A stretch of 64,000 nucleotides of DNA, from positions 75,950,001-76,014,000 of the forward strand of contig OX597828.1 of assembly GCA_951406725.2 (NCBI GenBank). The letters run 5' to 3'. The DNA comes from Octopus vulgaris (lineage: Eukaryota). Each line of letters starts with the position of its first letter. Within the stretch, counting starts at the first letter, position 1. Below are positions 25,641 through 26,413 of the stretch, in pieces. The notes under the pieces were generated by a model. It saw only the letters and a list, made by a program, of their open reading frames with translations. It was not told where the DNA came from and did not search any database. Made by a program: the position numbers and the translations under genes.

Positions 25641-26413
25641 GAAATACAAAACCCGTCAAAGGGCGGAGGAACTCTTGAGAGTCAACGGCCATCCAATAAA
25701 TGTGTAATTATATATTTAATGTATATCTGCCTTTTTCTCACTAATATTCATATGATGTATATTTTTATAGCTTTGCTCATTATATAAATTTTTATATACT
25801 TCACATCATATATTTTATGCATATTTTGTATATCAATGTTTTTTCTATTTATATATAATCGTAGTTTTTATTTATGTATTTATTTATTTTTTCTCCTTAT
25901 ATCAATCTTACCCAGCTTAAGGCTGTATCATGCGCAGGGACATAGAAATAATCGGAATGAATACCCGATCGCGCGGTTAAACCATTGGGAGTGAAGGACT
26001 CCTAGACTTTGTTAGGTCATCCTTCTAGGAGAAGGTAACTCAGGTAACTGGGATAACTCCGACATAAAACCTGCGGCTCAGTGGTTACCGATGATGTTGA
26101 CTTGTTCTTCTTTTCGGATTATGGCTGTTGTTGCTTGGTGAGTGGGATTGACTCAGTGCACAGCCTTTCCTCACTTTAAAACATATCTTCTTGCCCAGGC
26201 ATTGCACGATAACAACATTGATTGATTGATTAAATTGATTAACTAATTCATGATTGTTGATAGTGCTGTGAGTCTCAACTGAATGGCTGGCTGTAGCCTT
26301 AAAAAGCAAATTGTAGATCTTTAGCTGGGCTAAAAAGTCACGTTCGATCACAGCACCAGTAACGGTTAAGCTTCGTGCAATGGCCATACTCGATAACGAG
26401 GGGGGGCAGCCAT
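25640..26413 (+). mobile_element. Same retroposon as 11462-12003, copy 2, 5'-truncated, intron-retaining form
   Basis: Aligns with 11584-12002 apart from extra segments at 25704-25915 and ~26222-26366. Flanked by (TA)n. Confidence 0.8.
25704..25915 (+). other. Putative spliceosomal (GT-AG) intron inside the retroposon
   Basis: GTAATT...TTTTTTCTCCTTATATCAATCTTACCCAG. Removing it exactly regenerates the copy-1 junction AATAAATGT|CTTAA. Confidence 0.7.

Follow-up and report, generated by a model that had tools for sequence, protein, structure and literature searches.

LINEs are expected to shed any spliceable intron at once. Excerpts of several published accounts describe related behavior. L1 SpIREs arose when a LINE was retrotransposed with its 5′ UTR spliced, so that copies with the exact junction coexist with unspliced ones; part of the L1 promoter is removed by this splicing, and the copies are mostly dead ends (Larson et al., 2018; PMC5860796). 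Penelope and Chlamys elements retain a 5′ UTR intron through retrotransposition, which is described as highly unusual, and Penelope-like elements carry a GIY-YIG nuclease and pseudo-LTRs (bioRxiv 10.1101/2021.04.23.441226). Bov-A, RTESINE1/2, MAR4, and WALLSI3 combine the 5′ UTR and 3′ end of an RTE around an internal deletion and are thought to be transcribed by Pol II (Kojima, 2018; PMC5786205); the words "intron" and "splic" are absent from the main text of that paper. Recombinant ends have been described as 5′ end switching of plant RTEs (bioRxiv 10.1101/2022.11.04.512097) and as chimeras of exons and LINE-1 that stop at splice donors (bioRxiv 10.1101/2025.02.02.635956). In Octopus vulgaris, RTE-2_OV has a single ORF for an endonuclease, an RT, and a C2H2 finger, a 5′ UTR of ~600 nt, and a microsatellite tail (Petrosino et al., 2022; PMC9115989), and the excerpted text mentions no intron for it. 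Our search of openly available full-text literature found no RTE described as retaining an intron in its 5′ UTR, and excerpts of PMC13282606, PMC8501958, and PMC12477816 contained nothing on such an element.

We analyzed a 64,000-nt stretch of the O. vulgaris genome (contig OX597828.1; hereafter the window), which contains two copies of one element on the + strand, copy 1 at 11459–12004 and copy 2 at 25639–26416. Copy 1 consists of positions 11–200 of a 200-nt exon 1 in the 5′ UTR (11459–11648; 92% identical to the full-length copy L101), the 5′ UTR downstream of an exact GT/AG join as far as the internal deletion of type A, which precedes the ORF start (11649–11957), and the LINE 3′ end with the type-A tail variant GCCACCAT (11958–12004). 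The join at 11648/11649 reads ...AAATGT followed directly by CTTAAAGCTG. Copy 2 comprises the final 65 nt of exon 1 (25639–25703), a 212-nt GT–AG intron-like insert (25704–25915), the remaining 5′ UTR to a type-B internal deletion ~30 nt before the ORF start of the family (25916–26311), and the LINE 3′ end (26312–26416), followed by (AT)n to 26431. Both copies end in GCAGCCA(C/T)CAT followed by an AT-rich or microsatellite run. Their 5′ ends differ, copy 1 being nearly complete and copy 2 being truncated behind a (TA)n array at its insertion site (25529–25637, unstranded). Copy 2 also carries 144 further bases (about 26222–26365) that are absent from copy 1; the two are therefore different internal-deletion subfamilies rather than a parent and its spliced daughter. 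Further down the 5′ UTR of copy 2, at 26027–26055, two donor-like sites, AAG/GTAACT and CAG/GTAACT, were present, and none of the copies and joints listed was seen using either.

The insert lies exactly at the join of copy 1, begins with GTAATT, and ends with CCAG. Its composition is 81% AT and 53% T on the + strand, and its GT donor and AG acceptor lie on the transcribed (ORF) strand. The breakpoints, measured on L101, could slide by 0 nt to the left and 0 nt to the right, and the junction had no microhomology. A preliminary description of the window had reported these 212 AT-rich bases, the fixed breakpoints, and the common 3′ end with differing 5′ ends, and our analysis agreed with it on each. 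Deletions with ends ≤20 nt from the two insert edges would give 1,254 distinct products, of which six (~0.5%) are compatible with GT..AG. The donor, TGT/GTAATT, lacks G at both −1 and +5, and a donor of this kind is weak in U1 pairing. The body is T-rich, the 3′ end has 78% pyrimidine at −30 to −4, and the preceding AG is at −53, which leaves the 50 nt before the acceptor AG-free. No clear branch point was found within 60 nt of the acceptor, where only loose TTTAT/CTTAT matches occurred. In an alignment of 22 introns, 17 started with GTAATT and 16 ended with CAG.

To place the element, we searched the 2.8-Gb genome and found that copies run on into an ORF; several of 20 loci examined were full-length elements of 4.2–4.4 kb. 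One of these loci, L107, has a single frame of ~3.4 kb with three stops, which encodes an APE endonuclease (PF03372), an RT (PF00078), and a weak C2H2 match, with no ORF1. By its architecture and motifs, this family (family A) appears to be an RTE-type LINE. In the full-length copies L096 and L101, the insert is part of the 5′ UTR that precedes the ORF, and the LINE 3′ end carries a microsatellite tail. The window copies are bipartite non-autonomous LINEs, multicopy internal-deletion derivatives in which the 5′ UTR is joined to the 3′ end and the ORF is removed, as in the bipartite RTE LINEs described in the excerpted text of PMC5786205. The 5′ end is sharp, being reached by 84 of the 117 copies with any exon 1, and the two ends of the element adjoin (TA)n or (TATG)n. 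No tRNA head was found in any of four loci, and no Rfam match to tRNA, 5S, or 7SL in eight. A SINE with a Pol III head was rejected, the head being the 5′ end of the LINE itself, and a Penelope-like element was likewise rejected, given an APE endonuclease in place of GIY-YIG. In the eight loci, Rfam matches were all driven by microsatellites and included no ribozyme, and a custom descriptor, run without a positive control, found no HDV-like fold at the 5′ end in six of six. The first 100 nt (L032:1315–1414; window 11459–11545) are predicted to form a three-way junction and a stem, and the first hairpin of the element is longer yet predicted to be still paired in native copies of a related family (family B); this region may serve as a promoter or as a ribozyme of another type.

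The preliminary description had proposed a non-coding, RTE-UTR-like non-autonomous family and had suggested a search for an autonomous LINE sharing its ends. The RTE-UTR origin held, and the autonomous LINE was found with both ends shared; the window copies are indeed ORF-less, but they do not make up a family of their own, the intron belonging to the 5′ UTR of a coding LINE. Other repeats in the window include a disrupted RT fragment from a further RTE-type LINE (21587–22744, +; ~44% identical to family A) and a 156-aa frame (6856–7326, −) that resembles the C terminus of an R4/Dong-type LINE, with its zinc knuckle and restriction-like nuclease. A (AAT)n-type microsatellite of ~2.3 kb occupies about 1700–3990, and a dispersed repeat of 350–450 nt, probably a SINE, has at least six window copies with 70–85% identity (20489–20867, 32758–33174, 39905–40269, 42897–43259, 44231–44692, and 60979–61433).

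Family A resembles RTE-2_OV, as excerpted, in its one-ORF architecture, its ~600-nt 5′ UTR, and its microsatellite tail (PMC9115989). Identity with RTE-2_OV was rejected, since none of five of its published primers matched the family copies examined at ≤3 substitutions, the one match lying in a flank; the one supplement of PMC9115989 searched gave no match to the family A sequence.

Genome-wide, the junction occurred in three forms. The exact-loss junction gave 1,136 matches with a 28-mer and 2,741 matches with a 20-mer at ≤1 mismatch, and reversed-pattern controls gave 0. The full-intron form gave 33 exact matches to the donor pattern, 19 to the acceptor pattern, and 28 to the interior pattern, which were pooled into 61 intron-bearing loci corresponding to about 50 independent insertions. 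Among these loci, only a group of 10 and two further pairs had related upstream flanks, and segmental duplication accounts for these and no more. Ten loci (L066, L069, L089, L090, L121, L123–L125, L206, and L209) represent one partial intron-bearing insertion that was multiplied together with its flanks in a larger repeat on several contigs. The third form is a remnant of ~20 nt that combines the donor with a run of T and a duplication of 7 nt; scored by eye, the first 100 of 301 matches included 53 remnants and seven introns. Other shortenings of the intron, including L026 and L067, kept one or both ends and were joined at T-rich or CTT repeats.

Intron-bearing copies, both full-length and short, had a normal 5′ end, a normal tail, and unrelated flanks, which indicates that they retrotransposed via unspliced RNA. 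All 19 acceptor matches extended into the element, and only three of the 28 interior matches lacked most or all of exon 1, all three being partial fragments. The segment was thus met solely with the element or as its own fragments, and an independent repeat or a host source gene was rejected; no source of the insert was found. In 27 of the 61 intron-bearing loci, the best local alignment ended inside the intron, often at a new microsatellite or other repeat; insertions seem to be drawn to this AT-rich sequence. Full-length copies exist in both states (L096 and L101 with the intron, L095 and L106 without it). Both forms were also present in sequencing runs of two other organisms and are therefore older than those splits. 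In contigs of four presumed-RNA runs, the GT..AG joint was found in all four and intron coverage in two; since the genome itself contains both forms, the joint in thousands of copies, these contigs are uninformative on splicing. The earlier proposal that the family spread in unspliced and spliced forms was thus borne out as far as the many DNA copies of each, with one exact GT/AG junction shared among the intronless copies and a segment that is neither unique to one copy nor an independent repeat; an imprecisely shortened third form also exists, and the intronless excess is addressed below.

We compared the ages of these forms by non-CpG divergence from the majority of each group, using copies with at least 200 scorable columns. 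Divergence was 3.50% for old intron copies (n = 17), 2.96% for younger intron copies (n = 13), 2.83% for remnant copies of the B2 subfamily, 2.55% for type-A intronless copies (n = 50), and 1.83% for full-length remnant copies (n = 9). All intron copies together were more diverged than type A (p = 0.003), but for the younger intron copies alone the difference from type A did not reach significance (p = 0.08). In a midpoint-rooted tree of 27 ORF-bearing copies, two intronless, nine remnant, and one shortened copy formed one clade with moderate support (87), and the 15 intron copies fell outside it. The youngest autonomous copies carry the remnant or no intron, and none has a functional one. Native family B, with 47–53% protein identity to family A, had no AT-rich insert at the site and no intron at the matching position in any of 21 rows, and the sequence of two further 5′ modules from 66–68% relatives was continuous through the site, again with no AT-rich insert. 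Since three related 5′ modules are free of the insert, it was likely gained within family A, as judged from these alignments; together with the intron-bearing state of the oldest copies, this points to gain in family A followed by loss. After the loss, family A has 14 extra nt at the site relative to the related 5′ modules.

To examine how often the intron was lost, we drew two samples blind to junction state, namely copies with the type-B deletion and matches to an old allele. The type-B deletion, as in copy 2, occurred in four copies genome-wide, three with the intron and one with exact loss (L014); beyond the deletion, type-B copies had no private SNP in common. Among 25 matches to an old allele, 10 carried both old alleles (506C+542C) and 15 carried one. 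Of the former, eight had the intron, one was truncated, and one (L261) had the exact junction with old alleles on both its sides; of the latter, 13 were intronless, one had the remnant, and one had the intron. In the two intron-bearing lineages, 2 of 13 copies were therefore intronless by the exact junction, which occurred on at least three haplotype backgrounds when the T64 intronless lineage is included. This lineage is defined by site 64 of exon 1, which was C in all scored intron copies, both type-A intron copies included; of the type-A intronless copies, 76 were scored and 73 had T. Type A may therefore owe its intronless 5′ module to recombination rather than to its own splicing.

Type-A copies with and without the intron numbered 2 and 50, respectively. 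On contig 1, the first 100 exact-loss junctions, a sample that favored young copies, comprised 86 type-A, three B2, one ORF-bearing, and 10 unclassed copies. With one deletion junction common to at least 86 of these 100 intronless copies, the intronless excess reflects a founder effect from a single short intronless master and is not a measure of splicing. The B2 subfamily had 225 matches; among 31 copies, 22 were scorable, of which 17 carried the remnant, five the exact loss, and none the intron. Splicing of the 20-nt remnant was rejected, as it is too short and an extra G would remain, so the exact junction in B2 also travels by recombination. Chimeras indicated the same process. In L111–L117 and L130, family B carries exon 1 of family A (90–96% identical), joined exactly at the donor position of A, and 27 such rows were found by eye among the first 100 matches. 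Native-type family B copies (L233–L243 among them) had AG at the matching place in 3 of 21 rows; this chimera was possibly made by splicing, and template switching fits too. A third LINE family (C; 28–34% protein identity) was fused to exon 1 of A plus the first 12 intron bases in L118–L120 and to a longer 5′ part of A in L017. These chimeras indicate that 5′ modules move by recombination, and true splicing events may have been as few as one. The acquisition of exon 1 by family B is akin to the 5′ end switching outlined for plant RTEs and to the exon/LINE-1 chimeras in the excerpted sources, with the breakpoint here exactly at the donor position of A.

On this evidence, we consider it probable that the segment is a weakly spliced spliceosomal intron that the family gained in its 5′ UTR, that the RNA was retrotransposed both spliced and unspliced, and that a short intronless master made most copies. 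The gain may have been the capture of an AT-rich stretch of ~226 nt with a good acceptor, including the 14 nt left after loss. The weak donor would have made the intron leaky and mostly retained, so that ~2 of 13 daughters were spliced. Spliced RNA was likely copied back on several occasions to give exact intronless copies, which would still be mobile, as neither the 5′ end and 5′ module nor the 3′ tail is affected by the loss, and intronless masters, above all one of 560 nt, then likely amplified. A second route of loss would be microhomology deletion inside the intron, giving the 20-nt remnant of the youngest autonomous copies, and template switching or gene conversion may have shuttled 5′ modules among subfamilies. 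A stronger version, in which an APE-type LINE gained a spliceosomal intron, kept it for generations, and repeatedly spliced it out, with the donor also grafting the first 200 nt onto a second family and each stage left behind as dated copies in a single genome, is conceivable and rather doubtful.

Other readings explain part of these data. That a single splice-out event produced the one exact junction, which then spread among subfamilies by template switching or gene conversion, is unlikely; the module exchange seen in the family B and C chimeras, T64 in most intronless copies, and the B2 exact-loss copies without intron-bearing sisters would fit it, but it would have to invoke a rare donor or a short tract of conversion for L261, where old alleles flank the junction, and again for L014, which combines C64 with the rare type-B deletion. 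We regard as very improbable an AT-rich insertion lost by DNA-level or RT-jump deletion with coincidental GT/AG ends. Deletions of the same segment did happen (the remnant, L026, and L067), related RTE UTRs contain AT-rich spacers, the donor is weak, and splicing is read from DNA copies; against these stand a junction free of microhomology, the ~0.5% chance of GT..AG ends, the AG-free, pyrimidine-rich 50-nt 3′ end, and the recurrence of one junction on several haplotypes.

The preliminary description had also suggested that splicing could regulate the element. A maintained switch governing expression or mobility is harder still to credit: the intron lasted through at least two subfamilies, and splicing it out of L101 would drop three upstream ATGs, but nine others stay, and the youngest autonomous copies have an unspliceable remnant or no intron. 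Regulation is disfavored because both successful loss routes abolish the intron, which is a dispensable passenger. Least probable of all is an intronless ancestral state of family A with the segment as a side-branch insertion and nothing lost. The insert-free outgroup modules and the T64 of native family B, shared with the intronless copies, agree with that order of events, but divergence is highest in the intron copies, which the tree places apart from the intronless clade, eight of the nine old-haplotype copies whose junction is visible have the intron, the intronless form keeps 14 nt of the insert, and none of the 100 sampled intronless copies was highly diverged, in a sample that favored young copies.

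The probable gain and loss of a weakly spliced intron thus sets family A beside two described systems. As in the L1 SpIREs, to the extent of the excerpted account, exact-junction copies of a spliced 5′ UTR lie next to unspliced ones. Unlike SpIREs, family A lost a discrete, apparently gained AT-rich intron, and the intronless form is the most numerous, full-length copies included; a dead end of the SpIRE kind was rejected, since a single deletion junction is common to at least 86 of 100 intronless copies. A 5′ UTR intron is kept as in Penelope-like elements, whereas family A is an APE/RT LINE that eventually lost it. This RTE-type LINE kept a 5′ UTR intron over at least two subfamilies before an intronless form succeeded. 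The finding gives no pointer to a host function. It offers a natural dated series in which a single site records the gain of an intron, its exact loss, and its imprecise decay; 2 of 13 is a rough in vivo share of spliced templates, and the three natural UTR variants suit tests of whether the LINE machinery prefers unspliced RNA. If repeated splicing and donor-site grafting are true, splicing would drive both the succession of LINE subfamilies and the exchange of their 5′ modules.
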